From an uncultured bacterium (GTDB lineage: Bacteria > Verrucomicrobiota > Kiritimatiellia > RFP12 > UBA3636): 64,000 nucleotides of DNA. Below the pieces are notes generated by a model that was not told the origin of the DNA, did not search any database, and was given only the letters and a program-made list of their open reading frames with translations. This document shows positions 34,129-53,161 of this stretch, piece after piece (the stretch's first letter is position 1; every line of letters starts with the position of its first letter). The stretch lies in assembly GCA_902761575.1 (NCBI GenBank), contig CACWKU010000001.1:22435-86434 (forward strand). Reading direction: 5' to 3'. Made by a program: the position numbers and the translations under genes.

Positions 34129-35724
34129 TCAACGAGGCGCGATCTTGACCCAGACGAAGTCGAGCTTGTCGCGGACGGCGACCGTGAGGACGCCGCCTTC
34201 GATCCGCGCTTCGCCGCGACCGCCGATGACGGTCGGCTCCAGGCCGTCCGAGGGCAGGTAGTCGGCGAGGGGCAGGGAGAACTCCTCGCGCGCGTCCAGC
34301 TCGCGGAAGAGAAGCGCCGTTCCCGCCGTTCCGTCGCGGGACGCCGACACGAAGCCCGTCCAGGAGAGGCCGTCCGGCGCGCTCCCGACGGGATGGACGT
34401 AGCCCTCGTGGATCGCGTCGCGCTCCCGCTTCCATCGGGCGATGAGGGGCTTCCACGCCTCGACCGTCTCCCGCGAGAGGTTCTGGATCTCGAACCATCC
34501 GAGCGGCGAGGAGTACATCGCGATCGCGAAGATCGCGTCGCGCGGCCAGCGCAGGGGCGCGAGCGAGTCGCCATCGGGATACAGTTCCGGCTGGCGCTCG
34601 GGGTTCAGGACCTCCATCCGCAGACGCACGGGATCGACGGCGTGCGCGAGGCCCCAGAGGTTCCGCAGCGTGCGGTGCGGCCACCAGAGGCGGCCGTCGC
34701 CCTCGCGGACGTAGCGGTTTTCCACGAAAACGGGGCCGATGCGCGGGAACGCGAAGTAGCCGGGGCGCCGCCCCGCCGTGACGTCGAGGTCGACGGTGAT
34801 GCGGCCGCCCGACCCGTCCATCAGCCGGTCCATCAGCATCCCCTGGCGCGCGAATGCGAGAGGGGTCGGCGTGTCCATCGAGTCGAACTTGAAGTAGTCG
34901 ATGCCGAAAGAGCGGTGGAGGGACAGGAGGAAGTCGGCGTCCCGCCGCCAGTTCGCCGCCTCGTCGGAGGAGTCCGGCCCGAACCACAGCCCGAACTTCA
35001 GGCCCTTCGCGCGCGCCTCCGCGATGAGCGGCGCGAGCCCGCCCGGGAACCGGACGGGGTCGACGTCCCAGAACCCCGCCTCCTCCCACCAGGAGCCCCA
35101 GCGCCCCTTTTCGCCCCTCGCGACGCGGACGGAATTGGCCGTGTAGCCCTTCTCCCAGCCGTCGTCGATCTGGATCACGTCCACGCCGAGCTCGGCCCCC
35201 GCCGCGATCTCGCCCCGCAGGAAGCGCTCGTTGACGCAGGCGTCCTGGTGCCCGTCGCCCCAGGTGTTGGAGAGGAAGAGCCCGTCGCGCCCCGCGACGT
35301 ACGGGCGGAACGACCGGTGGAAGTCCGTGGCCGCGCGGACGCGCCCCGCCCTCCCGCCGCGATAGCCGACGCGGAAGCACCGGTAGGGACTGGAAAGGAT
35401 GCGCAGCATCTGCCGCCCGGGATCCACGTGCCAGTCGGGCGAATCGTCCGCCCGCGCGTGCGGCAGCGGCGCCTGGCGGAAGAAGGCGACGCCCTCCCCG
35501 CCGAGCGAATCCTCGAGGAAGAGCGCCGGTCCGGCAACGTCGAACGGCCTCTCGCAGCGGGAAAGCAGGCGCTCCTTCTCGAAGTAGAGGTCATCGTGCC
35601 GGTCCGTGTCGTCCACCAGCTGGACCTCGACCAGCCGCGGATGCTCCCACGTGTAGCGGAACTCGCCGCCCTCCTCCGCTCCGTACGGAAGCGCACGGAC
35701 CTCGGGCACGACGGAATCGGGCAT
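34129..35724 (-). CDS. GH36-like alpha-galactosidase/melibiase-family enzyme (531 aa), no signal peptide
   Basis: Track ORF. Motifs VIQIDDGWE and IDYFKFDSMD (GH36-type K-x-D), plus GLKFGLWFGP. Its start lies 13 nt after the stop of 35738..36388. Confidence 0.85.
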   Translation of the reverse strand: MPDSVVPEVRALPYGAEEGGEFRYTWEHPRLVEVQLVDDTDRHDDLYFEKERLLSRCERPFDVAGPALFLEDSLGGEGVAFFRQAPLPHARADDSPDWHVDPGRQMLRILSSPYRCFRVGYRGGRAGRVRAATDFHRSFRPYVAGRDGLFLSNTWGDGHQDACVNERFLRGEIAAGAELGVDVIQIDDGWEKGYTANSVRVARGEKGRWGSWWEEAGFWDVDPVRFPGGLAPLIAEARAKGLKFGLWFGPDSSDEAANWRRDADFLLSLHRSFGIDYFKFDSMDTPTPLAFARQGMLMDRLMDGSGGRITVDLDVTAGRRPGYFAFPRIGPVFVENRYVREGDGRLWWPHRTLRNLWGLAHAVDPVRLRMEVLNPERQPELYPDGDSLAPLRWPRDAIFAIAMYSSPLGWFEIQNLSRETVEAWKPLIARWKRERDAIHEGYVHPVGSAPDGLSWTGFVSASRDGTAGTALLFRELDAREEFSLPLADYLPSDGLEPTVIGGRGEARIEGGVLTVAVRDKLDFVWVKIAPR

Positions 35725-35737
35725 GGAAGGAAGGCCC

Positions 35738-36388
35738 TTACTTGACGGTAATGACCGCCGGCTTCCCCGCCGGTTCGTCCGACGGAAGCTCGCGCACCTG
35801 GATGGCGTTGATCAAAGCCTGGCCGCTGTACGAGATCGTGAACTCCTCCGTCGTGGCTTCGGCGGTGAACTGGCAGATCAGCGAACCGCCGTATTCCCAT
35901 CCGGTTCCGGCGAACTTGGCAACCGTCGTTCGGTCCGGCGCGGTCGCCGACTGCGTCGTGTAGTCGTTGCGGAAGGCGACCATCTGGACCAGATACCGCT
36001 TCCCGGATTCCAGATTCTTCAACGCGATCGGCCGGTCCTTGCCGTTTGCCCACCAGCCATTCGACAGCAGATCCTTGTAATCGCCCGACTCGGTGTCGGA
36101 GGGAGGCGACGAAACGGCGTTGCCGGCTCCGCCCGAGGCTTCCCAGACGACGCAGTCCGCCGTATTGACGATTTTGTCGCCGACACCGGCGAACGAAACG
36201 CCGTTGACCGTGTAGTTTCCGCGGGCGTAGGCGTACTTGAGCGTTCCGTCCGTGCGGATCGACGTGCTGCTCGCCGTCAGTGGCGTAGCAGACCACGTGA
36301 CGTCCGTTGCCGCCCCGGCGGGGGCGGCGACGAGCGCGGCGGCGGCCGCGAGGGCGAGGGCGGCGGTTTTCCTGACGATGCGATTCAT
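35738..36388 (-). CDS. Free-standing secreted 'QVR' module protein (216 aa)
   Basis: C-terminal part of track ORF 35738..40231, trimmed to the ATG at 36388 (MNRIVRKTAALALAAAAALVAAPAGA signal peptide). The whole mature protein is one copy of the recurrent module (..SSTSIRTDGTLKYAYARGNYTVNGVSF..GKRYLVQMVAF..LINAIQVRELPS). Confidence 0.85.
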   Translation of the reverse strand: MNRIVRKTAALALAAAAALVAAPAGAATDVTWSATPLTASSTSIRTDGTLKYAYARGNYTVNGVSFAGVGDKIVNTADCVVWEASGGAGNAVSSPPSDTESGDYKDLLSNGWWANGKDRPIALKNLESGKRYLVQMVAFRNDYTTQSATAPDRTTVAKFAGTGWEYGGSLICQFTAEATTEEFTISYSGQALINAIQVRELPSDEPAGKPAVITVK

Positions 36389-36476
36389 GGGACGTCTCCT
36401 TGTCCGGGACGGGGTTGTCGTCGGCCGGTTCTCCCGGCCGCCTCCGACGGAGGCCGTGGCGGTGCCGACGTCCCGT

Positions 36477-36533
36477 ATCATACCCCCGCGCCCCAGCGGG
36501 CGAGTAGGTTCAAATCGGGCAAAAACGGGTAAA
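36477..36533 (-). promoter_or_regulatory. Tripartite upstream cassette copy 7 (putative promoter of 35738..36388 and the GH36-like gene)
   Basis: TTTACC (36533-36528), N18, ACCTAC (36509-36504), N21, TATGAT (36482-36477). Confidence 0.55.
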
Positions 36534-36549
36534 GCGCCCAGCCCTTCGC

Positions 36550-36573
36550 GTGGCGGGGTGCGGACCCCGCCAC
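36550..36573 (-). terminator. GC palindrome hairpin 24 nt after the stop of 36598..39927, immediately upstream of cassette copy 7
   Basis: GTGGCGGGGT-gcgg-ACCCCGCCAC (10-bp stem). No U tract follows. Confidence 0.4.
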
Positions 36574-36597
36574 GGCGGCGAACGCCACAAGGGGCGG

Positions 36598-39500
36598 CTA
36601 CTTGATCCGGTAGACGTGCCGGCTGAAGCCGTCGAAGGCGTCGGAGAAGACGCCGCCCTTCGCCTGGAGGGTGCGGTTCTCGTAGAGGACCTCGACCGTG
36701 GTGTCCTGCGGGACGTCGTCCGGGAGGCGGAACGAGACCCGGGCGTTCGGGTGCGGGTTGACGTTGGCCGTGTAGATGCGGCGCTCGCTCCCGTGCCGGC
36801 GCGTGAGGCAGCGGATGTAGTTCTCGGTCTCGCTCGCGATGGCGCCGCCGCAGAGCTCGTCGGAGCAGAGGAAGTCGACGTTGTCCAGCAGCTCGCGGTT
36901 GATGTCCACGAGCGCGTCGTAGCAGCAGCGCGAGGTGGGCATGTTGACGAACCAGGAGAGGCCCGTCGCGCCGGCGGCGACACAGCCCCAGCACTGCGCG
37001 ACCTGCTCCTTGTAGGTCGGGATCCGCGGATGGAGCGAGTTCTCGCTCTCCATGAAGTACCAGCACGGCTTGCCGGGCGCGATGGAGCGCAGGACGTCGA
37101 CCTTCGAGACGACCATGTCGAGCGTGGTGCCGTCGACGGTCAGGTAGTAGTCGACCATCAGGATGTCGGTCGGGAGCCCCGCGAAGCGCCCGGAGATGCC
37201 GAGCCAGCAGTTGTTCATCTGCACGGGGTTGTAGGGGAAGAGGGCCTTCGTCCGCTTCATGAACGCCTTGCAGTCGTCGGCGTTGCGGTACTCGGGCTCG
37301 TCGAGGACGAGCCAGTTGATCACGTTCGGGCTGTCGAGCATGCCGTACATCTTCCGGCGCGACCAGTCGGTGACGGAGTTGTCCTCCCAGCGCCGGATCT
37401 CGCCCACGTCGTCGAGGGTCTGGCCCTCGCCGGTCCAGATCGTGAACTTCATGCCTTTCTGTGCCGCGTACGCGAGCGTCTTGCGGTTCATCTCGATGTC
37501 GCGGACGTTGAGGTTGTTCTGCAGGTTCAGGTACTTGAACCCGGCGTCGGCGAGGATGTCGACCGGACGCGAGGTGCCGTCGTCCATCGGCCCGTTCTCG
37601 CGGCCGATGAGGCACGGCGAGCTCATGAACACCTTCTCGCCGTCGTGGACGAGCGTGCGGGACCACTGGTTGATCTGCGTCGCGCCCTTCTTGAAGGGCA
37701 GCTTGCGGACCTCGGCCTTCCACTCGCGGCCGAGCGCGCGGACCGTGACGGCGTTGGTGCCGCAGGGCATCCCGGAGATGTCGATCGAGACCTGCTCGAA
37801 GCCGCCCTTGCCGTCCCACGCGCGGAAGTCGGCGGTCCTCTCCTCCATGTAGAAGTCGTAGTGGCCGAGGAGGAGCCCCTCGGGCGGGAGCGGATAGCCG
37901 CAGAGCGCGTTCTCGGCGGGCGTGAGCGGCGCCGTGCGCTCGGGCTTCGCGTGCGGGGTCGGCTTGCCGAGCGCGAAGTTCTCCGCGTCGCCGGACTTCG
38001 GCTTGTACTCCGTCGCGTAGGTCTTCGCGGGGTCGAAGCCGCCGGCCGGCGGGTCGACCATCTCGAGCTGCAGGTCGTCGAGCCAGATCGAGGCCTCGGT
38101 CGTGCGGTCGCGAAGGCCGGGGACGTCGAACCAGACGGGGCTGAAGATGCCGGGCGCGGGCAGGTTGGTCGTCGTGACCTCGTAGCGCGTCCATTCGGTC
38201 GTGAGGTCCACGATCCGGGCGTTGTCGGAGAGCTTCGCCTTGAACTGGACGCCGGGCTCGGACGCCTTCGCCCAGAAGGAGAGGACCGCGCTGCGGCCCT
38301 TCTGCGTGGGCGTGTTCCAGGCGAAGAAGTCGAAGCTGCGGACGAACGGCCCGATGCGCAGCCGGAGCGACTGCTTCCCGGAGTGCCTCTCGGCCGTGTC
38401 GACCATGAAGCACTTGAGGTACTTCTCCTTGTAGTCCTCGATCGAGACCTTCGACATCTCGCAGGAATTGCGGTTGCAGTAGTGCAGCGGCACGCCGTCG
38501 CCGTCGAACTCGAAGCCGGAGTTCGAGATCAGGTTCGGGCTGTCCTCGCCCTTGAGCGCGTAGATCGTGACGCGGCGCACCTCGAAGGGGCACTTGAAGT
38601 TCTCGATGCCGAGCGGGGCCCAGTGCGCGACGCCGTCGAAGCCGACGGTCTTCCTCGGCGTGGGCGCCGTGTAGTAGTTGCCCAGGACGCCGTTGAGGAA
38701 GAAGGCGTAGCCCATCATCGTCTCGCCGATCTTGCGACGCTCGAAGCGGACCGTGACCGGCTCGCCCTCCTTGAAGTTGGCGATCCAGGGGTAGGCGCTG
38801 CGCGTCGGCTGGTCGGCCACCGGCTGGTAGAGGGTCACCCCGTAGCCGTCGCTGCGGACGCCGAACGTGCCGTAGTCGCCGGTCATGACCGCCCAGTGGT
38901 AGTCGCCGTCCTTCGGGTCCTTGATCTCGCTCCACGCGGGGTAGACCGCGATCTCGGCCTCGGCCGCGAACTCGTCCGGCAGCTCGCCCTTCCACTGGAT
39001 GCCGTCGCCGGTGCCGCCGCTCGGGATGCGCACCGCGCCGTCCTTCACCTCGATGTCCTTCTGCGCGTGCCCGCGGAAGCTCCAGCGCTCGGCGAAGACC
39101 TTGGGCTCGGAGAAGTCGTCCTCGAAGATCGGGACCGAGAAGTCGGAGACCGGCCCGCCCGGCGCGCGGGCGGCCCCGGCGGCGTTCGCGGGCTCCTTCT
39201 TCTCGTAGCGCGGCCCCGCCTCGAGCGGCACGTCCGTCGCGCTTGCGTAGAACTTCCCCGTGACCTCCTCGTAGAGGCCGGCGACGCCGCCCTTCACGAC
39301 CGGGACGAAGCGCGCGAGCGGCTTTCCGTCCCGGTAGAACTCCGCCCCGTAGAGCGCGAGGTCGTAGCAGGCGTAGGACTTCACCGACCCGTCGTCGCAG
39401 GTCATCCCGAAGAACGAGACCGGGACCTTGCCGGCCGCGGTGCGCTCGCCCTCGAGCTTCATGTCGAAGCTGCCCCAGGTGACGTGCCGGCCGTCGTAGA

Positions 39501-39927
39501 CGATCGACACGCGGGTTCCGATGGCGGAGTCGTTCACCTCCTGGAGGCCGCAGTGGATCCACTTCTCGCGGCTCTTGCGGCCCAGGCTCGCGAACGTCTG
39601 GTAGGCCTGCGCCTCGTGCCCGCCGAGCGCGAGCTGGAAGAGGTCGCGGAAGCCCTCCGCGTCCTGCGCGTCCTCCTGGCCGAAGAAGACCGTCGTGTTC
39701 TTCGCGTGGTCGAACTTCCCGCCGAAGATCTGGTTGAACGGGCCGTCGAACCGGACGTCCATCCGGAACGTCGTCCCGGGCTGCGGCACGAGGTCGGTCT
39801 TCACGCAGCTGCCGTGCGTGGACTTGACGTATTCGACGCGGTAGTCGAAGTCCGCGGCGGCGGCGGACACGGCGGCGGCGGCGAGGCAGGCCGCGACGGC
39901 GCGGGCGTTTCGTTCGATGGCGTTCAT
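36598..39927 (-). CDS. Large secreted multidomain putative glycoside hydrolase (1109 aa): two LamG/DUF1080-like sandwiches, a CBM4/9-like domain and a TIM-barrel-like catalytic region. Paralog of 43645..46467.
   Basis: Track ORF. Signal peptide ..AVAACLAAAAVSAAAA. Shared blocks with the paralog include SNSGFEFDGDGVPLHYCNR, HSGKQSLRL, IWLDDLQLE, GMPCGTNAVTVRA, LVLDEPE, PYNPVQMNN, and the C-terminus EVLYENRTL..HVYRIK. The family is not recognised by me. Confidence 0.85.
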   Translation of the reverse strand: MNAIERNARAVAACLAAAAVSAAAADFDYRVEYVKSTHGSCVKTDLVPQPGTTFRMDVRFDGPFNQIFGGKFDHAKNTTVFFGQEDAQDAEGFRDLFQLALGGHEAQAYQTFASLGRKSREKWIHCGLQEVNDSAIGTRVSIVYDGRHVTWGSFDMKLEGERTAAGKVPVSFFGMTCDDGSVKSYACYDLALYGAEFYRDGKPLARFVPVVKGGVAGLYEEVTGKFYASATDVPLEAGPRYEKKEPANAAGAARAPGGPVSDFSVPIFEDDFSEPKVFAERWSFRGHAQKDIEVKDGAVRIPSGGTGDGIQWKGELPDEFAAEAEIAVYPAWSEIKDPKDGDYHWAVMTGDYGTFGVRSDGYGVTLYQPVADQPTRSAYPWIANFKEGEPVTVRFERRKIGETMMGYAFFLNGVLGNYYTAPTPRKTVGFDGVAHWAPLGIENFKCPFEVRRVTIYALKGEDSPNLISNSGFEFDGDGVPLHYCNRNSCEMSKVSIEDYKEKYLKCFMVDTAERHSGKQSLRLRIGPFVRSFDFFAWNTPTQKGRSAVLSFWAKASEPGVQFKAKLSDNARIVDLTTEWTRYEVTTTNLPAPGIFSPVWFDVPGLRDRTTEASIWLDDLQLEMVDPPAGGFDPAKTYATEYKPKSGDAENFALGKPTPHAKPERTAPLTPAENALCGYPLPPEGLLLGHYDFYMEERTADFRAWDGKGGFEQVSIDISGMPCGTNAVTVRALGREWKAEVRKLPFKKGATQINQWSRTLVHDGEKVFMSSPCLIGRENGPMDDGTSRPVDILADAGFKYLNLQNNLNVRDIEMNRKTLAYAAQKGMKFTIWTGEGQTLDDVGEIRRWEDNSVTDWSRRKMYGMLDSPNVINWLVLDEPEYRNADDCKAFMKRTKALFPYNPVQMNNCWLGISGRFAGLPTDILMVDYYLTVDGTTLDMVVSKVDVLRSIAPGKPCWYFMESENSLHPRIPTYKEQVAQCWGCVAAGATGLSWFVNMPTSRCCYDALVDINRELLDNVDFLCSDELCGGAIASETENYIRCLTRRHGSERRIYTANVNPHPNARVSFRLPDDVPQDTTVEVLYENRTLQAKGGVFSDAFDGFSRHVYRIK

Positions 39928-39966
39928 GGTCGTTTTCCCCTGGATGGTTCCGGTCGGACTTGCGGG

Positions 39967-41121
39967 CTAGAGCCCGAGCTCCTTCGCCTGCTTGGAGGCG
40001 ACGCGCTCGGATTCGGCGGCGGCCTTCACGCGGTCGATCTGGAGGCCGAAGTCGCCGCTCTCCGCGTGGTCGCGGTCGGCGATCGGCTCGTCGCCGAAGC
40101 TCGTCGCCATGATCGAGAAGATGCGCGCGAAGTTGCCGTCGCAGGAGCTGAAGTGCGTGTCGTTCTCGTTGAGGCGGTTGGTGAGCACCACCTCGACGGC
40201 GTCGAGGCCCGGGTCGATCAGGAGGAAGCACCCCGTGGCGCCGGCGTGGCCGACGGCCTCCATCGTGTTCACCTCGCCGAAGTACTGGCCGAAGCCGACG
40301 TAGCCGGACTTGATGAAGAACGCCGGCGTGCGGTTGAACTCGGGCCTGAGGCAGCGGCGGAAGAGCGCGTCGGCACCCTGCGGCGTGAGGATGCCGGCCT
40401 TGCGCGTGCGGCGGATGTCGAGCAGGTGCCGGCCGAACTTCACGAGGTCCGGCGCGGTGATGTGAAGCCCCGACTGCCCCTGGTGCGCGGCGAAGGCGGA
40501 GTGCTCCATGCCGAGCGGGCGGAAGATGCGGTCGCGCGCGAGGTCGGCGACGTCCGCGGCGCCGGTGACCTTCTCGCAGATCTCGGCGAGGATGTCGTAG
40601 CCCTGCGACATGTAGCGGAACTTCTCGTTCACCTCGAAGTCCTGGTACATCGTGGCGTAGAACTCGTCGTGGCGCTTCTCATCCACGGCCTTCGCGACGT
40701 GCCCGGTGCGGTTGCGCCAGCCCGAGGTGTGCGTCATCAGGTTGATGATCGGCACGTTCTCGCCGGGGAACTCCGGAATGTACTTCCTCACGTAGTCGTT
40801 GAGGGAGAGCTTGCCCTCCTCCGAGAGCTGCATCAGCAGCGTCGCGGTGAAGACCTTGGTGATCGAGGCGACGTGGAGGGGCGTGTTCTCGTCGAACCCC
40901 TCCCAGCCCTTCTGCGCGACGAACCGGTAGCGCGTCTCGCCGTGCTGCTCGTAGACGCAGCTCATGCACTTGAGGGCGCCGCCCTCGAACTCGCTGGCGA
41001 GGAACGCGTCCACGCGGGACTTGGCGTCGGCGCCGTCCGCCGCGAACAGCGATCCGGCGAGCAGGGAGGTCGTTCCGACCGCGATGGCGCGGACGGCGTG
41101 GTTCCGAACGATGCGTTTCAT
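39967..41121 (-). CDS. Secreted serine hydrolase of the beta-lactamase/transpeptidase-like (class C/esterase) family (384 aa)
   Basis: Track ORF. Signal peptide ..AIAVGTTSLLAGSLFA. S-x-x-K motif in LHVASITKVFTATLLMQL. Lies 39 nt upstream of 36598..39927, so they are a likely operon. Confidence 0.9.
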   Translation of the reverse strand: MKRIVRNHAVRAIAVGTTSLLAGSLFAADGADAKSRVDAFLASEFEGGALKCMSCVYEQHGETRYRFVAQKGWEGFDENTPLHVASITKVFTATLLMQLSEEGKLSLNDYVRKYIPEFPGENVPIINLMTHTSGWRNRTGHVAKAVDEKRHDEFYATMYQDFEVNEKFRYMSQGYDILAEICEKVTGAADVADLARDRIFRPLGMEHSAFAAHQGQSGLHITAPDLVKFGRHLLDIRRTRKAGILTPQGADALFRRCLRPEFNRTPAFFIKSGYVGFGQYFGEVNTMEAVGHAGATGCFLLIDPGLDAVEVVLTNRLNENDTHFSSCDGNFARIFSIMATSFGDEPIADRDHAESGDFGLQIDRVKAAAESERVASKQAKELGL

Positions 41122-41203
41122 GGGAGGGCTCCGGACGATGGGGATGTCGTTCCTTCGGCGCGCCGCCCCCCCCGGGGGACGGCACCCGCGCCGAACGCCG
41201 CCG

Positions 41204-41260
41204 AGTATACCCCACGGACCGCTCGCGAAGAAAGGGCGAAATCGGGCAAAGACGGGTAAA
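41204..41260 (-). promoter_or_regulatory. Tripartite upstream cassette copy 8 (putative promoter of 39967..41121 and 36598..39927)
   Basis: TTTACC (41260-41255), N18, CCCTTT (41236-41231), N21, TATACT (41209-41204). Confidence 0.55.
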
Positions 41261-41316
41261 TCAATGTCACCCCCGTCTTTTCCCGTTCCTCGCCGGTCGG
41301 GCAGTGGAGGCGCGGG

Positions 41317-43515
41317 CTACTCTTCCGCGAAATCGATCTTCCAGCGGAAGAAGAGCCGGGGCGGGCTGCCGCCGGCGGCGGGCTTCCAGGTGCCGTCGCC
41401 GCCGTCGTACGCCATCGGAACCAGATTCTCGTCGGACCAGTCCGCAAGGTCTTCGGTGGCTTGCACCGTCAACGCCGCCCCCTCGGTGTTCACCGGCTCC
41501 GGAATCGTGACGGACGGATTGCCGTCCTCATCGAAGCCGATGTCGAGCAGCGGCTCGGTTAGGTCTGCGGGGCCGATCGAGGGGTCGATGTCGAAGACAT
41601 ACCGCACGCCGGCCGGGATTCCGTTCACCATATCTTCCGGTTTCGGCATGTCTTCCGGTTTCGGTTCGTCGGTAATGCCAACGTCATTCAGCCAGAGCTC
41701 GTACGCGCTGAAGAACGTCCGCAGGTACGGATACGTCTCTTCGTCGATCTTCCAGACGTCGACGAAGTCGAGGGCTGTGAAGGACTCTTTCCGCTGCATC
41801 TCCTCGTCGCCGAGCGGCGTGATGCCGGCGTAGTCGTCGGAGCCGCTACTCGTGCCGGCGGCCTTCAGGCCGTTCTCGGTGTCTTCATAGTAGGAACCCG
41901 TGACGAGACCGGAACTGGCCAGGCCGACGAACGCGCCGCGATAGTGCCCACCATCGCTCGAGACGTAGCTGTAGCACCAGGAGGTGTCGATTCGGGCCGC
42001 CTTCGACACGCCGCCCGCGAAGCCGCCGACATTGTCGCCACCATTGCCGCCGTAGCCGTCGCTGCTATCCACTGACGATTGGGCGCTGGAGTCCGCGATG
42101 AAGCCGCCGCCGTGGTTGCCGACGAAGCCGCCCGTGTACGACTTGCCGGACTCGTTCGCCACATAACTTTCCACGCAGCAGCGGAGAATGACGGGCGCGT
42201 CTGCGGTGTAGCCGACGAAACCGCCGGCGTTGACGCTGTTTGTATTCCAGACTTCTCCGACGAACCAGCAGCCGTCCACTAGCGACTTGGAGTCGATCTT
42301 GCCCGCGAGACCGCCGACGCCGACGTCCTCCAATCCGGAGTCGGCCGGACCGCCGGTGACATAACCCTCCTCCACTTGCACGCCGCTCACGCGGCCGCCG
42401 TTGATCTTGCCGAAGAGTCCCGCATACTTGTCCGTGGTGTCGATGTAGAAGTTGCTGATCTTGTGGTTCTGTCCGTAGAACTCGCCTTTGAACGGGGTTC
42501 TGTAGTTGCCGATGGGCTCGATGGTCTCGCCGTCGAAGTCGATGTCCGCCGTCAGCACATAGCTGCCCGAGAGGTTGTTCGTGACGGCGAGCAGTTCCTC
42601 GGGAGTCGAAATCGGAATCATCGCGCTGGACTTGGCGCGTTTCGGCGCTTCCGGCCACTTGGCGGAGCGTGCCTTTATGTCCGCCTGCGTGAGCCTGCCG
42701 CCCGTGATGGCCGGGTCGTTCCCGCAGAACGGACGCGGCCCGTTGGCGTAGGCCGAAACCGCGCAGTTGACATTCGTTCCTCTCACGTGGTGGCCGATGA
42801 ACGACCCAATGTCGCCGCCCGTGCCCCACACGGCGCCGGAGCACCAGCAGTCGCTGATCGTCGCATCGTCGTGGGCGAGCCGCCCGACGAAGCCGCCGTA
42901 GTAGCTGGCGGCGGAGCGCACGTCGCCGCGCGCCACGCAGTTGGAGATCACGGCTGGCGCATAAACGTAGCCGATGAATCCGCCCGCCATGCCGGAACCG
43001 CTGACGAAGCCGTCCGCACGGCAGTCGACGATTCGATTGGTCGCGCTGCCGCCGGCGCAGGCCCCGACCAGACCTCCGGCGTAGGAGTTGGTCGCCGCGA
43101 TCTCGACCGTCGCGATGCAGTTGCTGATGACCGTTCCGCCCGTGATGCATCCGACGAGACCGCCGACGTACTGCTTGCCCGCGACCGTTCCCGAGACGGA
43201 AACACGCTTGATCGTCGCATTGCTCGCGCAGCCGAAGAGCCCGCGATAGTCGCTGCCCGACAGGCTGTTCGTGCAGAAGAGGTTGCGGATGGCGCGGTCG
43301 TTGCCGTTGAACGTGCCGGTGAACGGCGCCGAATCGGTGCCGATGGGCGTCCAGTCCGCCCCGCCGAGGTCGATGTCCGAGCCAAGCTCGTAGGAGCCGG
43401 CGAGGTTCTCCGCGATCGCCGCGAACCCCTCGCGGGTGGTGACGAGCGTGGGCTCGGCGACCGCGTGCGCTGCCGCGAAGGCGAAGAGCAGGGGAAGAAG
43501 GGGACGGTGCTTCAT
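41317..43515 (-). CDS. Secreted GLUG-motif repeat protein with a C-terminal 'FFR'-type tail (732 aa)
   Basis: Track ORF. Signal peptide MKHRPLLPLLFAFAAAHAVA. Many GLUG-style repeats are present (..YVGGLVGC.., ..YAGGLVGA.., ..MAGGFIGY.., ..YGGFVGR.., ..NAGGFVGY.., ..YTGGFVGN..). The tail ends ..PPRLFFRWKIDFAEE. Confidence 0.85.
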   Translation of the reverse strand: MKHRPLLPLLFAFAAAHAVAEPTLVTTREGFAAIAENLAGSYELGSDIDLGGADWTPIGTDSAPFTGTFNGNDRAIRNLFCTNSLSGSDYRGLFGCASNATIKRVSVSGTVAGKQYVGGLVGCITGGTVISNCIATVEIAATNSYAGGLVGACAGGSATNRIVDCRADGFVSGSGMAGGFIGYVYAPAVISNCVARGDVRSAASYYGGFVGRLAHDDATISDCWCSGAVWGTGGDIGSFIGHHVRGTNVNCAVSAYANGPRPFCGNDPAITGGRLTQADIKARSAKWPEAPKRAKSSAMIPISTPEELLAVTNNLSGSYVLTADIDFDGETIEPIGNYRTPFKGEFYGQNHKISNFYIDTTDKYAGLFGKINGGRVSGVQVEEGYVTGGPADSGLEDVGVGGLAGKIDSKSLVDGCWFVGEVWNTNSVNAGGFVGYTADAPVILRCCVESYVANESGKSYTGGFVGNHGGGFIADSSAQSSVDSSDGYGGNGGDNVGGFAGGVSKAARIDTSWCYSYVSSDGGHYRGAFVGLASSGLVTGSYYEDTENGLKAAGTSSGSDDYAGITPLGDEEMQRKESFTALDFVDVWKIDEETYPYLRTFFSAYELWLNDVGITDEPKPEDMPKPEDMVNGIPAGVRYVFDIDPSIGPADLTEPLLDIGFDEDGNPSVTIPEPVNTEGAALTVQATEDLADWSDENLVPMAYDGGDGTWKPAAGGSPPRLFFRWKIDFAEE

Positions 43516-43533
43516 GGCGGGGAACGGCGCCGC

Positions 43534-43562
43534 ATTCTACCAGATTCCCGCGTGCGCGCAAA
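43534..43562 (-). promoter_or_regulatory. Sigma70-like promoter for the GLUG gene 41317..43515
   Basis: Sense strand: TTTGCG (43562-43557), 17 nt, TAGAAT (43539-43534). The -10 is 18 nt from the ATG. Confidence 0.4.
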
Positions 43563-43644
43563 CGCCCCCGCCTCCCGGCGGCACGGGGACCGGAATGGAG
43601 CCCGCACGCGGCCGCCGAGGAGGCGATGCCCGGCCCGGCGCGCG

Positions 43645-46467
43645 CTATGGCGCCGGATGGATGCGGTAGAGGTGGCGGTAGTGCCCGGGATAGAAGTCGG
43701 CGAAGGAGCCGTCCGCGAGCGGGAGGGTGCGGTTCTCGTAGAGGACCTCGACGGTGCCGGCGCGCGGGGCGTCGGGCGGGAGCGTGAAGGTCACGGCCTC
43801 GAGCGGGTCGGCGTCGATGTTGCACGAGAAGATATACCAGTCGTCGCCGCACTTCGAGGTGCGGTGGCGGAGGAGGTCCGGCCCGACAGAGGCGCGCGCG
43901 GGCTCGCAGACCTCCTCGCTCAGGATCTTGTCCTTGAGCTCCTGTGCCTCGCGGTTGAAGTCGACCATCGCGCGCCAGTTCGCCTCGGAGCCGACCATGT
44001 TCACGAACCACGTGACGCCGGAGCAGCCGGCGCAGATCGCGCCCCAGCACTGCGCGGTCTGCTCGGCGTAGGAGGGCTGCTTGTAGTGGATCGAGTTCAT
44101 CCCCGCGAGGAAGAACCAGCACGGGACGCCCTCGCGCGCCTTGAGCATCTCGTCGACGTTGCGCAGGATCTGGTCGACGGTGCCGAACTCGGCGGCGGTG
44201 AGATAGGCGTCGAGCATGAAGACGTCGGTCCGCAGGTCGGCGAACCGGCTCGGGAAGCCGAACGTCGTGTTGTTCATCTGCACCGGCGTGTAGGGATAGT
44301 GCCTCTTCTCCTCGATCATGAAGTCGCGCACCTCGTCGCTCGGGCGGGAGAGCTCGGGCTCGTCGGTCGCGACGCGGCTCACGATGTTGTCGAAGTCCTT
44401 CAGCCGCTCGCGCGTCTCGGCGCGCGTCTCGGTGGCGCCGTCGCGGTCGCCCGTCCAGAGGATGAAGTCCATCCCGATCTTCCGCCCGTACTCGAGCATC
44501 GCGATCGTCCGGTCGGTGCCCGCCTTGTCGGAGAAGGTGCAGACGTGCGCGTAGCGGAAGCCGCGCGCCTTCATCGCGTCGAGCATCGCGAAGCGGCCGT
44601 CCTCGCGGGGCGGGTTCTCGCGGACGACGAGGCAGTTGGCCGCCATCAGGACCTTCTCCCCTCCCCTCTCGAGGCAGCGCGCGAAGCGGTTGATCTGCGT
44701 GGCGCCCCTCCAGTACGGGAGCTTCACGACCTCGACGGGCCAGTCGCGGCCGTGCGCGCGGACCGTGACGGCGTTCGTGCCGCAGGGCATGCCGCGGATG
44801 TCGAGCGCGACCTCCTCGAGGCGGCCCTCCTCGTCCCAGATGCGCCAGCGCGCCTCGGGCTCGCGCATGTAGAAGTCGAGGCGGCCGAGGACGACCGGCT
44901 CCGGCGCGGCCTTCTTCGCGGCGGCGGCGCGCGCCCACTTCGCGTGGACCTCGGGCGGCAGGTCGAGCGAGGCCCAGAAGGCGTCGTCGCGGAAGTCGCC
45001 GTTCTTGGAGTAGGAGGTCCCGGGGCACTGCGGGTTCTCCCCGTGGCGGTCGTTGCGGCCGAGGTTGAAGAGCCAGTGCGCGTCCATGCCGCGCTCCGCG
45101 AGGTCCGCGAAGGGGACGGTGACGAGGTACTCGACCGCGCCGCCCGCGTCGCGCGCCTGCACGGTCCAGGAGCCGTCCCAGGTCTTGTCCTCGCCGTAGG
45201 CGTCGGCGCGGCAGCCGTTCGGCGCGCAGAAGAGGTGGTAGTTCTTCTTCTCCTCCGTCGGGCGCAGCAGCACCTCCACGGAGTCGCGGATGCAGATCTC
45301 GGTCGCGTCCTTGAAGTAGGGCGCGTGGCCGATCTCCGCGGGATCCTCGCCGAAGTTGCGGAAGCCGATGTAGAGGCGGTCGTCGTCGCACGCGAGGAAG
45401 GCCTGCGTGCGCTGGACCGGCTCCTCGCGCTTCACGTAGAACCGGCCGGCGTCGGCCGCGTGAGCCTCCCACGAGGAAAGATCGACGGTGGGCCGCACGC
45501 CCGCGGGGAGCTTTTTCACCCGAACGGTCGGCGGGCGCTCCGCCTTCTCCTGCCGCCCGAAGCGCGTGGCGTCGAGGTCGCTCGGACGCCACTGCGTCGC
45601 CGCGTCGCCGAACTCGAGCTGGAGGTCGTCGAGCCAGATGCAGCCGTCGTAGCGCGACGGATTTCGCACCTCGAACTGGACGGGGCTGAAGAGGCCTGGC
45701 GCCGGCATGTTCGTCGTCGCGAGCTCGTAGCGGGCCCACTCGGTCGAGAGCGCGAACGTGCGCCGCTCGGGGCCGAGCGACACGGTGATCTCCATCCCGG
45801 GCCTCTCCGCCTTCATCCAGCCCGAGAACACCCCGTGGGCACCCTTGCGCGTCGCCGTGCGCCACGGGTAGAACGACACGTTCGCGCAGTACGGCCGCAC
45901 CGCGAGGCGGAACGACTGCCTGCCCGAGTGCTTCTCCGCGGTGTCCACCGCGAAGCCCTTCGTCCACTCCTCGTACTCCGCGCCGCCGTAGTGGCGCCAG
46001 TCGAACGCGCCGCGGTTGCAGAAATAGGGCGGGACGCCGTCCTCGTCGAACTCGAAGCCGGAGTTCACGATGAGGTTCGGCGAGGCGTCGGCGTCCTCCG
46101 GGAGCGAGACCACGACGTCGTCGATCAGGCGCGGGGCCGCGCCCCGCGCCTCGAAGACGACGGCCGGGCTCTTCGCCCGCTCGCGCTCCTCGCGGCGAGG
46201 CGCGCGCTCCTCGCCCTCGACCCACTCCAGGACGTATTTCTCGGGCACGGCGCCGCGCCACGTCGCCTTCGCGCCGGGCGAGACGACGAGCCGGCCGCCC
46301 TCGCTGCGGATCTCGCCGTCCGCGCGCCAGTGCTCGGCGAGCGTCTGGCTCGTGGCGAAGTCGTCGGAGAAGACGGAGATCCCGGCCGCCGGAGCGGACG
46401 GCGCGGCCGCGGCCGCGAGCAGGACGAGGGCCGCCGGGAGGCGGGCGTTCCGGAAAGTCGCTTTCAT
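43645..46467 (-). CDS. Large secreted putative glycoside hydrolase (940 aa), paralog of 36598..39927 lacking the first N-terminal sandwich
   Basis: Track ORF. Signal peptide MKATFRNARLPAALVLLAAAAAPSAPAAG. Shares VNSGFEFDEDGVPPYFCNR, HSGRQSFRL, IWLDDLQLE, GMPCGTNAVTVRA, VATDEPE, PYTPVQMNN and EVLYENRTL with its paralog. Confidence 0.85.
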   Translation of the reverse strand: MKATFRNARLPAALVLLAAAAAPSAPAAGISVFSDDFATSQTLAEHWRADGEIRSEGGRLVVSPGAKATWRGAVPEKYVLEWVEGEERAPRREERERAKSPAVVFEARGAAPRLIDDVVVSLPEDADASPNLIVNSGFEFDEDGVPPYFCNRGAFDWRHYGGAEYEEWTKGFAVDTAEKHSGRQSFRLAVRPYCANVSFYPWRTATRKGAHGVFSGWMKAERPGMEITVSLGPERRTFALSTEWARYELATTNMPAPGLFSPVQFEVRNPSRYDGCIWLDDLQLEFGDAATQWRPSDLDATRFGRQEKAERPPTVRVKKLPAGVRPTVDLSSWEAHAADAGRFYVKREEPVQRTQAFLACDDDRLYIGFRNFGEDPAEIGHAPYFKDATEICIRDSVEVLLRPTEEKKNYHLFCAPNGCRADAYGEDKTWDGSWTVQARDAGGAVEYLVTVPFADLAERGMDAHWLFNLGRNDRHGENPQCPGTSYSKNGDFRDDAFWASLDLPPEVHAKWARAAAAKKAAPEPVVLGRLDFYMREPEARWRIWDEEGRLEEVALDIRGMPCGTNAVTVRAHGRDWPVEVVKLPYWRGATQINRFARCLERGGEKVLMAANCLVVRENPPREDGRFAMLDAMKARGFRYAHVCTFSDKAGTDRTIAMLEYGRKIGMDFILWTGDRDGATETRAETRERLKDFDNIVSRVATDEPELSRPSDEVRDFMIEEKRHYPYTPVQMNNTTFGFPSRFADLRTDVFMLDAYLTAAEFGTVDQILRNVDEMLKAREGVPCWFFLAGMNSIHYKQPSYAEQTAQCWGAICAGCSGVTWFVNMVGSEANWRAMVDFNREAQELKDKILSEEVCEPARASVGPDLLRHRTSKCGDDWYIFSCNIDADPLEAVTFTLPPDAPRAGTVEVLYENRTLPLADGSFADFYPGHYRHLYRIHPAP

Positions 46468-46497
46468 CGGGTGCGTTCCATCGGTTGTCTGCGGAAC

Positions 46498-46554
46498 ATC
46501 CTACCACACCGTCCCGAGGGGCGGCTAGGTACGCCGGGGCCTGAAAGCGGTAAA
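46498..46554 (-). promoter_or_regulatory. Tripartite upstream cassette copy 9 (putative promoter of 43645..46467)
   Basis: TTTACC (46554-46549), N18, ACCTAG (46530-46525), N21, TAGGAT (46503-46498). Confidence 0.55.
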
Positions 46555-46566
46555 ACCCCGCCGGCG

Positions 46567-47484
46567 TCAGACGACGAACGCCTTCTCCCAGCGGCGCGCG
46601 GTGTGGTCGCGGAAGAAGACGCCGTAGGACGCGCCGCCGTACCACTCGACGACCGCCGAGCGGATCGCGTTGCCGCGGCGGTTCTCGAGCGAGGCGACGT
46701 CGAACTGCGTGACCGCGGAGCCGTCGATCCCGGAGATCTGGCGCAGGCAGTCCTTGCCGCCCCACTGGAAGTCTCCGACGTGGCAGTGGCCGTAGAAGTG
46801 CGCGACGACGTTCTCCGGCAGCGGCAGCAGCGTCCCCATCAGGTCCGAGGCGCGGTTGCCGCCCGGGAAGGCGTAGTGGCTCATCGTGAAGACGGGCTTG
46901 CCGAGCGCGGCGATCGCCGCTCGCGCCCGCTCCGCGGCTCCGGGGTCGGGGTAGTCGATCCGGTTCTCGCCGTCGGTCGCGCCGCCGTGGACGCAGAACC
47001 ACGAGCCGTCCGGCGCGGCGTGGTCGGAGAAGATCGCGAGCGCCAGGTCGCCGAAGTCCGCGACGAGCAGCCAGTCGCGGACGGAGGGCGTCGTGTGCCA
47101 CTGCGTCTCCCGCAGGACGCGCTCCCGCATCGGGATCGTGACGCGCCCGCTTCCGCGGCCGCCGCCCCACCGGTGGTAGTCGAACTCGTGGTTGCCCATC
47201 GCGTACCAGACCGGCGCGTCGACCCGCGCGAGGGCCTCGACCTGCATGTCGGCCATCTCGCGCAGGTGCGCCGGATCGGTCCCCTCGGTCGTGTCGCCGA
47301 GGTAGCACACGGCGTCCACGGGAAGGCGCAGCGAGAGGAAGTCCTCCACGCCCGCGTGCATGCAGCGGCGGGCGTTCGCCGGATCGCGCTGCTGCAGGTC
47401 GGAGATGACCCAGAGGCGCCGGCGCGCGGGACGGAGCAGGCCCGCGCGGAAGTCCGCGGGCGGCGTGGCGGGGTGCGCGCTCAT
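46567..47484 (-). CDS. Calcineurin-like metallophosphoesterase (305 aa)
   Basis: C-terminal part of track ORF 46567..47955, trimmed to the ATG at 47484, which overlaps the upstream stop as ATGA. Motifs: ISDLQ, YLGDTTEG, MGNHEF, GHCHVGD. Confidence 0.8.
   Translation of the reverse strand: MSAHPATPPADFRAGLLRPARRRLWVISDLQQRDPANARRCMHAGVEDFLSLRLPVDAVCYLGDTTEGTDPAHLREMADMQVEALARVDAPVWYAMGNHEFDYHRWGGGRGSGRVTIPMRERVLRETQWHTTPSVRDWLLVADFGDLALAIFSDHAAPDGSWFCVHGGATDGENRIDYPDPGAAERARAAIAALGKPVFTMSHYAFPGGNRASDLMGTLLPLPENVVAHFYGHCHVGDFQWGGKDCLRQISGIDGSAVTQFDVASLENRRGNAIRSAVVEWYGGASYGVFFRDHTARRWEKAFVV
47465..47476. repeat. Half-copy of the palindrome (GTGGCGGGGTGC) at the 5' end of the metallophosphoesterase CDS
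   Basis: The sense strand reads ATG AGC GCG CAC CCC GCC ACG (MSAHPAT), echoing the GAHPAT peptide of the full intragenic copy. Confidence 0.6.
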
Positions 47485-48212
47485 TTCGACTTCCTCCGGT
47501 AGAGCGCGGCCGGACGGTGCCCCGCGCCGCCGCGCACGCCGCCCGCCGGCTCGACGAACGGTCGGATCTTGCGGCGGAAGTTCGCGGGGTCGTCGGCCGA
47601 GAGCCCGAACGCCAGGAAGACCTCGCGCAGCTCGGCGAGCGTGAAGGTCCGTGGCACGAACGCGAAGGCCAGGTCGCGCGCGGCGTCCGGCCCGCGCAGC
47701 CGCGCGAGCGCGCCGGCGAGGATCTCGTCGTGGTCGAAGGCGAGCCGGCGCCCCGGCTCCGCGAGCTCGCGCCATTCGGCGGCCGCGGCGTCGTCGCCGC
47801 CGCGCACGCCCTCGGCGCCCGCCGTGACGATGCACAGATACGGGCAGGAGAGGATCCACCCGCGCGGGTCGCGCCCGGGCTTGCTCCGCGGCGCGAGCGG
47901 AACGAGCGCGCTCGCCTCGAGGCCCGTCTCCTCGCGCAGCTCGCGCCGCGCGCACTCCTCCAGCGACTCGCCGGGCTGGAGGAACCCGCCCGGCAGCGCC
48001 CAGCGCCCCTTGAAGGGATGCCCGCCGCGCCTCACGAGCAGGATCGCGGCGCGGCGGCGCTCCGGCGCGCGCCAGTTGCCCGTCGGCTCGCAGCGCAGCG
48101 TGAGCGCGACGATGTCCGCCGCGACCGACGGCCGCGGGTACTTCTCGAGACTGTAGTGGGCGAGGAAGCTCGCCTCGTCGTCCAACGCGGATGGCTTGTC
48201 GTTCTTCTTCAT
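47481..48212 (-). CDS. Nudix hydrolase fused to a C-terminal winged-helix-like domain (NrtR-like ADP-ribose-responsive regulator/ADPR pyrophosphatase candidate, 243 aa)
   Basis: Track ORF. A perfect Nudix box is present (GGFLQPGESLEECARRELREETGL), followed by a ~90-aa C-terminal extension. Lies directly downstream of the pncA-like gene. The NrtR assignment is inferred from architecture and context. Confidence 0.8.
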   Translation of the reverse strand: MKKNDKPSALDDEASFLAHYSLEKYPRPSVAADIVALTLRCEPTGNWRAPERRRAAILLVRRGGHPFKGRWALPGGFLQPGESLEECARRELREETGLEASALVPLAPRSKPGRDPRGWILSCPYLCIVTAGAEGVRGGDDAAAAEWRELAEPGRRLAFDHDEILAGALARLRGPDAARDLAFAFVPRTFTLAELREVFLAFGLSADDPANFRRKIRPFVEPAGGVRGGAGHRPAALYRRKSK

Positions 48213-48228
48213 CGGCGCAGGGCCTCCG

Positions 48229-48756
48229 CTAGACGATGTCGCACTGGATCGAGCCGAGGACCGCCAGCGCGTGGACCTTCAGCTCCGGCGTCACGTCCGC
48301 CGTGGCGTCCGCGTGGACGACGATCGTCGCGTCCGGGAACCGCGCGCGCAGGATCGCCGCGTTGGAGAGGACGCAGATCGACGTGCATACGCCGCAGAGG
48401 TGCAGCTCCGCCGGCTCGTCGCCGATCCGCGCCGCGAGCGCGTCCGCGAGCGCGAAGCTGCCGAACGTGGGCTTGTCCACGACGATCGCGCCCGGCGCCT
48501 CCGCGAAGGACCGCAGCGCCGGCGCGATCTGCCAGCCGTCCGTCCCCTCGAGGCAGTGCGGGACCGGGAGCTTGCGCCCCTCGAGCGTGGAGGTGTAGTT
48601 TTCGTGGTGCGTGTCGCGCGTGAACGCGACGGCGTCCCACCCGCCCTGCGCGAGCAGCGCGCGGACGGGCTCCGCCGACGCCGCGCATTCGGCGTTCCCG
48701 AGGCTTCCCGTGAGGAAGTCGTTCTGCATGTCGATGACGACGAGGATCTTTTTCAT
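48229..48756 (-). CDS. pncA: Nicotinamidase/isochorismatase-family cysteine hydrolase (175 aa)
   Basis: Track ORF 48229..48822 trimmed to the ATG at 48756 (MKKILVVIDMQNDF..). D/K/C triad context: VIDMQNDF, VDKPTFGSF, LHLCGVCTSICVL. The metal-site style TRDTHHENY..PHC..GTDG resembles Gram-positive-type PncA as I recall it. Confidence 0.7.
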   Translation of the reverse strand: MKKILVVIDMQNDFLTGSLGNAECAASAEPVRALLAQGGWDAVAFTRDTHHENYTSTLEGRKLPVPHCLEGTDGWQIAPALRSFAEAPGAIVVDKPTFGSFALADALAARIGDEPAELHLCGVCTSICVLSNAAILRARFPDATIVVHADATADVTPELKVHALAVLGSIQCDIV

Positions 48757-48810
48757 GGGTTGAAGGGGCTGTCCTTTCGTGGTTCGGGGTGGTTTGTGTT
48801 CAACGCGTAC

Positions 48811-48835
48811 TGATACTATCAAAAATGAATTATCA
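48811..48835. promoter_or_regulatory. Inverted repeat TGATA-N15-TATCA spanning the spacer and -10 of the pncA-operon promoter (candidate operator, for example for the Nudix-wHTH protein)
   Basis: Plus strand: TGATActatcaaaaatgaatTATCA. Its position overlaps the predicted RNA polymerase contact region. Confidence 0.35.
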
Positions 48836-53025: not shown

Positions 53026-53105
53026 CGAAAGGGGTTCCAAGGGTTGTGTCGCGGTCCCGCGGCCGGCCCGGATCCGATCGCCCCGACCCGCCGAAGACGG
53101 AACCG

Positions 53106-53161
53106 ATGCTATCACCTCGCGCGCGTTGCGGGTAGGGACGGACCGCCCAAAAAGCGGTAAA
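53106..53161 (-). promoter_or_regulatory. Tripartite upstream cassette copy 10 (putative promoter of the SBP-permease fusion gene)
   Basis: TTTACC (53161-53156), N18, CCCTAC (53137-53132), N20, TAGCAT (53111-53106). Confidence 0.55.

Follow-up and report, generated by a model that had tools for sequence, protein, structure and literature searches.

Clan GH-A of the glycoside hydrolases (GH) is defined by catalytic residues located on strands 4 and 7 of the barrel. In this clan, the residue that precedes the general acid/base contacts the substituent at C2 of the sugar in subsite -1. Other families, such as GH20 and GH84, use a substrate-assisted mechanism (PMC7014002), of which GH185 is a recent variant (PMC10570127). 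Here, we describe two genes, hereafter A (36598..39927) and B (43645..46467), carried on a stretch of 64,000 nucleotides (the window; contig CACWKU010000001.1) from a rumen Kiritimatiellae bacterium. They belong to a family that is derived from clan GH-A, has a non-canonical active site and is without a Pfam or NCBIfam model or a solved structure. On balance, we favour the view that A and B, both secreted and built of several domains, are glycan-degrading enzymes of this uncharacterised, GH42/GH2-like-derived family, which probably cut complex glycans by unusual chemistry.

Two paralogous genes and their family

The region contains four genes, all on the minus strand and with the coordinates given in an earlier note on this DNA. 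G+C content across the window is 64-75%, and GC3 values of 0.86-0.99 provide a strong coding signal for the four genes:

36598..39927, minus strand: gene A, 1109 aa, GC3 0.99
39967..41121, minus strand: bla-like gene for a secreted S12-type serine hydrolase (PF00144), 384 aa
41317..43515, minus strand: GLUG-repeat gene, 732 aa
43645..46467, minus strand: gene B, 940 aa, GC3 0.97

The intergenic gaps measure 129 nt (B-GLUG), 195 nt (GLUG-bla) and 39 nt (bla-A, with bla upstream of A), and signal peptides are present at the N-termini of A, B and the bla-like protein. BLASTP aligns A and B in two collinear blocks, A463-651 with B129-303 (47% identity, E=3e-45) and A682-1108 with B522-936 (42% identity, E=6e-105). 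The aligned total is about 620 residues; the corresponding span of B is about 800 residues and includes a CBM9-like insert of about 220 aa without counterpart in A, which in turn carries about 460 additional N-terminal residues relative to B. Such similarity, far above chance, marks A and B as paralogs, as the earlier note had claimed, and each of the motifs quoted there is found in both proteins, including DEPE (A876-879, B702-705) and QMNN (A903-906, B730-733).

Neither protein has a Pfam or NCBIfam match, even at E<=1, and single-sequence searches of the PDB returned noise only, with no sequence relative. The exact A and B proteins occur in public databases on a 92-kb contig, and members of the 90% clusters of both are called only 'hypothetical protein [Kiritimatiellae bacterium]'; the closest genome is the rumen metagenome-assembled genome (MAG) RUG13889, at 98% identity. 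With a profile of the C-terminal module, 2212 cluster representatives were retrieved at E<=1e-3; the number falls to 521 at <=1e-10 and to 91 at <=1e-30. Among relatives from the Planctomycetes-Verrucomicrobia-Chlamydiae (PVC) group, 57 clear genome loci were located in Kiritimatiellia (rumen, goat gut and human gut), Victivallales/Lentisphaerae and Phycisphaeraceae, many of them with tandem copies. In addition, a word-indexed search with a broader profile revealed a tight Bacteroidota clade of proteins of about 670 aa (E 1e-45 to 1e-61). One of these, P0232, is named 'beta-galactosidase' by NCBI, although its residue in the GH42 nucleophile column is Pro. No description of the A/B family was found in the literature on rumen Kiritimatiellae carbohydrate-active enzymes and on substrate-assisted clan GH-A catalysis, nor did the literature search return a paper pairing substrate-assisted catalysis with clan GH-A. 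The earlier view of an unrecognised family thus stands in that no Pfam, NCBIfam or solved-structure family covers A and B; the family is nevertheless not rare, and its Bacteroidota relatives already bear the automatic name 'beta-galactosidase'.

A barrel derived from clan GH-A

The second collinear block corresponds to the catalytic-type module, whose relevant features are as follows:

36601..37884, minus strand: A682-1109, catalytic-type module, composed of a beta-sandwich (682-742), a (beta/alpha)8 barrel (~750-1021) and a second beta-sandwich (1031-1109)
43648..44904, minus strand: B522-940, catalytic-type module, 42% identical to A682-1108
37291..37302, minus strand: A D876-E877-P878-E879, at the C-terminal end of barrel strand 4
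37051..37053, minus strand: A M959, in the column matching the strand-7 nucleophile Glu of GH42
44356..44364, minus strand: B D702-E703-P704; the nucleophile column of B holds L787

Modelling of A682-1109 with AlphaFold2, together with ten homologues, gave a structure with pLDDT 84.5 and pTM 0.85, in which a small beta-sandwich precedes a beta/alpha barrel of eight strands, with a further beta-sandwich at the C-terminus. The nearest structural relatives of the modelled barrel are within clan GH-A, GH5, GH2 and GH30 appearing later in the ranking. The TIM barrel on which the earlier note had staked its glycosidase assignment is therefore predicted, and in a form related to GH-A.

Profile comparisons agree with this structural relation. 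The PVC profile reaches the GH2 beta-glucuronidase 4jkk at E=0.019, and the profile of the Bacteroidota clade matches human GH2 beta-glucuronidase 1bhg (E=1.1e-6), GH158 9oro (4.9e-6) and GH42 3tts (2.3e-4). Pfam Glyco_hydro_42 scores above the gathering threshold in the Bacteroidota proteins P0165, P0173 and P0232, as a partial match over profile positions 220-335, and weak matches occur in PVC members to Glyco_hydro_2_C (7 of 40, best 2e-7) and Glyco_hydro_42 (4 of 40). In A and B themselves, no match was found to the GH2 domain series (Glyco_hydro_2_N, Glyco_hydro_2, Glyco_hydro_2_C), none at E<=1 to PF02449 (GH42) and no homology to PF00728 or the GH20 fold. The GH42 trimerisation domain (Glyco_hydro_42M) likewise gave no Pfam match, and in the model the barrel runs straight into the beta-sandwich. 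Taken together, these comparisons indicate that the A/B module descends from a GH42/GH2-like barrel of clan GH-A. Two other identities were rejected: GH185/DUF4838, since Pfam scans of A, B and their relatives contain no DUF4838 match, and GH173, since that family is described as GH30/GH5-like.

A modified active site

Residue conservation was compared over 113 PVC and 105 Bacteroidota domain sequences, using a module numbering equal to the A residue minus 681. The two clades are only 20-28% identical. D195 is present in 113/113 PVC and 105/105 Bacteroidota sequences, and E196 in 113/113 and 104/105, the exception being a Lys. P197, D240 and E331 are nearly or, for E331, fully invariant in both clades, D245, Y247, R/K287 and E293 reach 96-100% (97-100% for R/K287 and E293), and N374, E402, R404, D415 and Y425 of the C-terminal sandwich are conserved on both sides.

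The D195-E196 pair directly follows barrel strand 4 (188-194), and HMMER aligns the DEP motif on the N-E-P acid/base motif of GH2 beta-glucuronidases and on the N-E of GH158. E877 of A and E703 of B are accordingly the predicted general acid/base. In every sequence, the residue preceding this Glu is Asp, as opposed to the Asn of clan GH-A. The likeness of DEPE to a GH-A acid/base site, noticed earlier from the letters, is thus confirmed exactly at the end of strand 4; the 'NN' block noticed with it is strand 5, and its conservation is confined to the first Asn and to the PVC clade.

The second half of the barrel tells a different story. When strands 5-8 are aligned with GH42 3tts (E=2.8e-4), GH42 'DVVSWDNYP' falls on 'D....D.YP' of the family, so that D245 and Y247 (D926 and Y928 in A) are inherited. 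GH42 'PFMLMEQTPG' falls on 'PvWivPQafGG', with the Glu of 'MEQ' on Pro in Bacteroidota or on L/I/V/M in PVC (M959 in A, L787 in B). The following column holds Gln in Bacteroidota and V/A/S/Q/E in PVC, and E960, which A has there, is lost even in orthologs of A that are 60-67% identical. In the 4uoq/4uoz sequence, the nucleophile column holds Ala at index 324, presumably the E324A nucleophile mutant of Bifidobacterium GH42, which speaks for the identity of this column. By these alignments, the canonical catalytic pair of clan GH-A is absent and the strand-7 nucleophile Glu is lost family-wide; with a non-acidic residue in this column across the family, no classical GH-A hydrolase would be encoded. 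The catalytic Glu pair anticipated in the earlier note was therefore not found.

Two conserved residues have no equivalent in GH42, where Ser and Val occupy the positions of R/K287 and E293; both were thus gained in the A/B family and lie in the loop after strand 7 (R968 and E974 in A, K796 and E802 in B). The counterpart of E331 in GH42 is a Glu in helix 8, and the role of E331 is probably structural.

Accessory modules

In front of their catalytic-type modules, the two proteins differ in composition. A consists of a signal peptide, an unassigned N-terminal domain, a DUF1080/LamG-like domain, a CBM4-type module and the catalytic-type module. In B, the signal peptide is followed by a degenerate DUF1080-like stub, a CBM4-type module, a CBM9-like domain and the catalytic-type module (CBM, carbohydrate-binding module):

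39178..39852, minus strand: A residues 26-250, unassigned domain, without Pfam match; it aligns with the N-terminus of relative P0004 and was seen nowhere else
38563..39138, minus strand: A ~264-455, DUF1080 (3-keto-disaccharide-hydrolase-like, LamG-type)
38053..38541, minus strand: A463-625, CBM4-type module, in the first collinear block (NSGFEFD, HSGKQSLRL, IWLDDLQLE)
45598..46083, minus strand: B129-290, CBM4-type module
45058..45498, minus strand: B ~324-470, CBM9-like domain, not in A

These assignments rely in part on the relative P0060. A264-588 aligns to residues 24-324 of this protein, which bears PF06439, a domain present in 9 of 40 family members. B47-471 aligns to P0060 116-540, of which 393-539 is PF06452 (CBM9_1, E=1.1e-7); B has no direct CBM9_1 match, but its residues 324-470 align on this CBM9_1-positive stretch, and CBM9_1 occurs in 24 of 40 members. 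In the Bacteroidota locus L073, the CBM9 part is encoded by its own gene, with an overlap of 4 nt into the start of the family gene.

Neither A nor B matches PF02018 itself, and the CBM4 type of the module, which agrees with the carbohydrate-binding module proposed earlier, is supported through their relatives. Pfam CBM_4_9 is found in 11 of 40 relatives, and the Bacteroidota clade carries a PF02018-positive domain at its C-terminus (approximately residues 485-650; 26-29 bits, the cut-off being 25.9). This C-terminal domain is matched at E 1e-15 to 1e-17 by a profile of 97 CBM blocks from PVC proteins, and the Bacteroidota profile in turn matches solved CBM4 modules (1gui at E=5e-4). The A/B module has a beta-jelly-roll fold of the CBM4 type. 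The order of module and barrel is permuted: the CBM4-type module is C-terminal in Bacteroidota (P0163-P0267; e.g. P0176 533-640) and N-terminal in PVC proteins. The CBM block could not be aligned globally by MAFFT with complete Bacteroidota proteins, which exposed the permuted order; aligning the domains on their own resolved this and yielded a common signature (N, GFE, G.P, D, G..S.R, W, W.D). Co-occurrence in either order suggests that the two domains act as a unit.

Gene neighbourhood

Both proteins that the earlier note placed between A and B, an S-x-x-K serine hydrolase and a GLUG protein, are recognised by Pfam. The product of 39967..41121 matches PF00144 at E=6.9e-43 and has the motifs S86-I-T-K89, Y170 and H292-A-G. 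Its nearest solved relatives (E 1e-8 to 1e-13) are an unnamed putative beta-lactamase, FmtA, an alkaline D-peptidase and the R61 DD-peptidase; the best PDB matches (E~1e-11 to 1e-13) cover mainly the N-terminal half, and the protein scores far under every NCBIfam equivalog cut-off. The gene is probably co-transcribed with A. Its orthologs adjoin family genes in three lineages and lie near them in seven further loci; the link to a serine hydrolase recurs in other lineages. In L004, a goat-abomasum Kiritimatiellae MAG, the bla-like gene sits directly upstream of an A-type gene. The distant Kiritimatiellia MAG L024 has it 66 nt upstream of a family gene (50% identity), and in L047, from Victivallales, it lies downstream of such a gene at a distance of 16 nt (35% identity). 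In L015, L016 and L032, bla-like, beta-helix and family genes form a run with gaps of 61-71 nt.

The GLUG protein matches Pfam Glug (PF07581) in three stretches (E=4.9e-11, 42.7 bits against a cut-off of 20.5). It also matches Peptidase_M26_N (E=1.2e-5), with two M26_N-like regions and no recognisable catalytic domain, and the IgA1 protease structures 7uvk/7uvl (E=7e-5). A GLUG gene comes next after B only in L020, a 98% relative, and three contigs from related species carry their A-type and B-type genes about 25-32 kb apart. The bracketing of the two middle genes by A and B and the association with GLUG are therefore local accidents particular to this species group.

A consensus scan of 35500..48500 was uninformative, as it found no promoter-like sites and a number of terminator-like sites below that of shuffled sequence. 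The 195-nt spacer between the GLUG and bla-like genes (41122..41316) contains an inverted repeat, AAGACGGG ... CCCGTCTT, with a T-rich stretch after it; the scan missed this arrangement because of the long loop. It could terminate the GLUG transcript and leave bla-A as a separate unit.

In the window, the genes of the A/B region have the same orientation and are part of a long run of secreted glycan-active genes; the neighbours include SGNH/GDSL esterases, a GH27 alpha-galactosidase, a BD-FAE esterase, beta-helix proteins and a 2097-aa giant with beta-helix and FGE-sulfatase domains. The commonest neighbour of the family, often adjacent to it, is a beta-helix/DUF5123 protein of the pectate-lyase fold, found in 19 Kiritimatiellia loci and without a sequence relative in the PDB:

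17155..20343 of the window, minus strand: beta-helix/DUF5123 protein
6668-8431 of L015: beta-helix/DUF5123 protein
11306-13573 of L057: beta-helix/DUF5123 protein
17 other loci: further copies

The Bacteroidota genes are found in other company. A GH2 gene, a GH20 gene and the family gene follow one another twice; another family gene belongs to a SusC/D locus with two GH18, one GH38 and a separate CBM9 protein abutting it, and one cluster includes GH29, a sulfatase and two metallophosphoesterases. In the main Bacteroidota subclade (among loci L070-L079), a GH127-like (DUF1680) gene comes directly after the family gene in 7/7 cases, preceded by an ECF sigma/anti-sigma pair and with prolyl peptidases nearby. 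These neighbourhoods are machinery for complex, decorated glycans or glycoconjugates and indicate no single substrate. The earlier suggestion of an attack on a decorated glycan is thereby strengthened, the neighbours in several lineages being enzymes for such substrates.

Proposed function and alternative explanations

From these features we infer a glycosidase activity for A and B. The CBMs would hold the enzyme on the polymer, and E877 (A) or E703 (B) would protonate the glycosidic oxygen. With the nucleophile site empty of any enzyme carboxylate, the second catalytic function would have to come from something other than a strand-7 carboxylate. Our preferred source, adopted tentatively and by analogy, is the substrate itself, through neighbouring-group participation. 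The Asp beside the acid/base could orient a 2-acetamido group for attack on C1, as do the Asp-Glu pairs of GH20, GH18 and GH84. Two traits of the substrate-assisted class, whose enzymes hydrolyse 2-acetamido glycosides by way of an oxazoline and are inhibited by thiazolines, are an adjacent Asp-Glu pair on strand 4 and a non-acidic nucleophile column; these are present in A (D876-E877) and B (D702-E703), and the GH20, GH18 and GH2 contexts in Bacteroidota fit a target containing N-acetylhexosamine (HexNAc). The target would be a complex decorated glycan or glycoconjugate, from which the S12 hydrolase would most likely strip a peptide or acyl decoration. A possible, if doubtful, scenario for the whole family is that it lost its nucleophile and changed Asn to Asp for substrate-assisted or other nucleophile-free catalysis, a change of mechanism for which the literature search returned no precedent within clan GH-A, with an inseparable CBM4-type module, a dedicated S12 partner in Kiritimatiellia and Victivallales, and a decorated-glycan target.

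Several observations weigh against this interpretation. There are no HexNAc catabolic genes near A or B. The window and other Kiritimatiellia loci are rich in functions of plant-wall type (SGNH esterases, GH27, BD-FAE, beta-helix), without a pointer to HexNAc, and the same is true of the GH127-like pairing in Bacteroidota. The 60 best structural matches of the model include no member of GH20, GH18 or GH84. The invariant E974/E802 could be a relocated nucleophile or base. Finally, the novelty of the family rests on comparison with Pfam, NCBIfam and the PDB, and it may coincide with a recent CAZy family without structure.

The most serious alternative, which we regard as unlikely, builds on one of these points: a relocated second carboxylate, either E974/E802 or the strand-6 D926/D753, would act as nucleophile in a retaining or as general base in an inverting enzyme, on any sugar. 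The conservation of E293 and R/K287 at 97-100%, as family gains over the Val and Ser of GH42, speaks for such a role, as does their position after strand 7 on the catalytic face of the modelled barrel, and the plant-wall-type neighbours suit non-HexNAc substrates. However, the model places E293 in the first turn of helix 7, usually too distant from C1, and D245 comes from GH42, in which it does not serve as the nucleophile. A relocated carboxylate would also leave unexplained the universal Asn-to-Asp change beside the acid/base.

The family-wide loss of the nucleophile and the CBM-rich architectures could alternatively denote catalytically dead, glycan-binding pseudo-enzymes in which the former active site serves as a lectin pocket. 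This is improbable, since the acid/base Glu, the adjacent Asp and several pocket residues are strictly kept across clades of such low identity, which exceeds the expectation for binding only, and the genes stand in operon-like runs with single-function glycosidases.

We give little credence to an acid-only reaction, in which a 4,5-unsaturated uronate left by a beta-helix polysaccharide lyase would be hydrated as a vinyl ether, as in GH88/GH105. Such chemistry needs a proton donor and no nucleophile, in keeping with the absence of the latter here, and the beta-helix/DUF5123 protein is the commonest neighbour, with a homologue in the window itself and a beta-helix gene upstream of P0256 as well. 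Yet the lyase activity of these proteins, which have no sequence relative in the PDB, is putative, unsaturated-uronyl hydrolases act on oligosaccharides and lack CBMs, and the Bacteroidota contexts (GH2/GH20, GH18/GH38) include no lyase.

It is very improbable that A and B are glycoside phosphorylases, in which a site for inorganic phosphate, the attacker of C1, stands in for the nucleophile. Binding of such an anion could fall to the invariant Arg/Lys after strand 7, and in GH112 (GLNBP) the site for phosphate and the catalytic acid overlie GH42's nucleophile and acid/base (PMC8106489). Lastly, the ordinary GH42 beta-galactosidases suggested by automatic names are refuted on their defining features, given the missing PF02449 match (E<=1), Asp-Glu for Asn-Glu, the lost nucleophile, the missing trimerisation domain and an identity of 11-15% to GH42 structures.

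Thousands of secreted members of the family from rumen and gut Kiritimatiellia, Lentisphaerae, Phycisphaerae and environmental Bacteroidota are currently called 'hypothetical' or, wrongly, 'beta-galactosidase'. If active, they would supply a missing step in models of complex-glycan breakdown by these poorly cultured bacteria and an example of a classical retaining scaffold that changed its mechanism. A and B are a concrete target for cloning, with obvious mutants in the D-E pair and the family-specific Arg and Glu, and the recurring pairings with S12, beta-helix, GH127-like and GH20/GH18 proteins offer leads to the substrate.

Further genes in the window

Other genes near A and B, all on the minus strand where a strand is given, deserve mention:

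23786..27076, minus strand: protein of 1096 aa
27174..33467, minus strand: protein of 2097 aa
34129..35724, minus strand: protein of 531 aa
46567..47955, minus strand: Metallophos open reading frame (ORF)
47481..48212, minus strand: NUDIX/NrtR-type regulator gene
48229..48822: isochorismatase-family gene
50410..53115, minus strand: protein of 901 aa

The 1096-aa protein was considered as a third paralog and rejected (BLASTP E=0.28 against A/B). Its sole Pfam signal is a sub-threshold GH42 match (E=0.0098), and in L001 an ortholog (93%) is located downstream of that of A; the protein may represent a further unassigned glycosidase-like type. The 2097-aa giant is an unusual fusion of DUF1565/Pel9A-like and Chondroitinase_B-like beta-helix regions with an FGE-sulfatase (formylglycine-generating-enzyme-like) domain (E=3e-35), NosD/DUF5123 and CHB_HEX_C. 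The 531-aa protein has a weak Melibiase match (E=4e-7), and its orthologs adjoin family genes in L002, L018 and the Victivallales locus L047 (31% identity).

The Metallophos ORF overlaps the regulator gene by about 470 nt. Its true start is probably near 47650, because conservation in L020 begins at residue 102. Upstream of it lie this NrtR-like regulator and the isochorismatase-family gene. The 901-aa protein, 96-97% conserved in L020, joins the solute-binding domain SBP_bac_1 to the ABC permease domain BPD_transp_1.

Comparison with known systems

Compared with GH42 beta-galactosidases (3tts, 1kwk), to which they are 11-15% identical, A and B have Asp-Glu for Asn-Glu and L/I/V/M or Pro for the nucleophile Glu; they lack the trimerisation domain, add a beta-sandwich at the N-terminus and carry a CBM4-type module as an obligatory part. 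The GH164 beta-mannosidase Bs164 (6t5o), with which GH140 apiosidase (8t9w) is grouped among the closest known systems, retains the canonical Glu160 and Glu297 on strands 4 and 7, whereas the strand-7 Glu is absent from the A/B family. The best profile links are to GH2 beta-glucuronidases (1bhg, 4jkm) and GH158 (9oro), at E 1.1e-6 to 2.9e-5 over strands 3-6. Here, the acid/base motif is aligned residue for residue, yet reads N-E-P in these enzymes and D-E-P in the family. The sugar-binding and Ig domains of GH2 are missing from A and B, and the matches end before strand 7.

GH20, GH18, GH84, GH123 and GH185 resemble A and B in the adjacent Asp-Glu that ends strand 4, the lack of an enzyme nucleophile and a strand-6 Tyr. 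This likeness points to a possible way of working and is accompanied by no sequence relation or top-ranking fold relation. A precedent for a GH42-like barrel that lost its nucleophile and changed its chemistry is the GH112 galacto-N-biose/lacto-N-biose phosphorylase (PMC8106489). GH112 works in the cytoplasm, without CBMs and with an Asp as acid, in contrast to the secreted A and B, in which no homology to GH112 was detected.

The product of 39967..41121 has the S-x-x-K, Tyr and H-x-G motifs in common with S12, family VIII esterase and PBP-type proteins (FmtA, R61 DD-peptidase, alkaline D-peptidase, EstB), although its PDB matches are weak; candidate substrates are a peptide, a D-aminoacyl group or an acyl ester. 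Finally, the A/B module differs from other CBM4/CBM_4_9 modules (PF02018; CBM4-2 4bj0, Lam16A 1gui) in having its own signature, N..GFE..G.P..C...HSxR...W..D, and in always travelling with this catalytic module.

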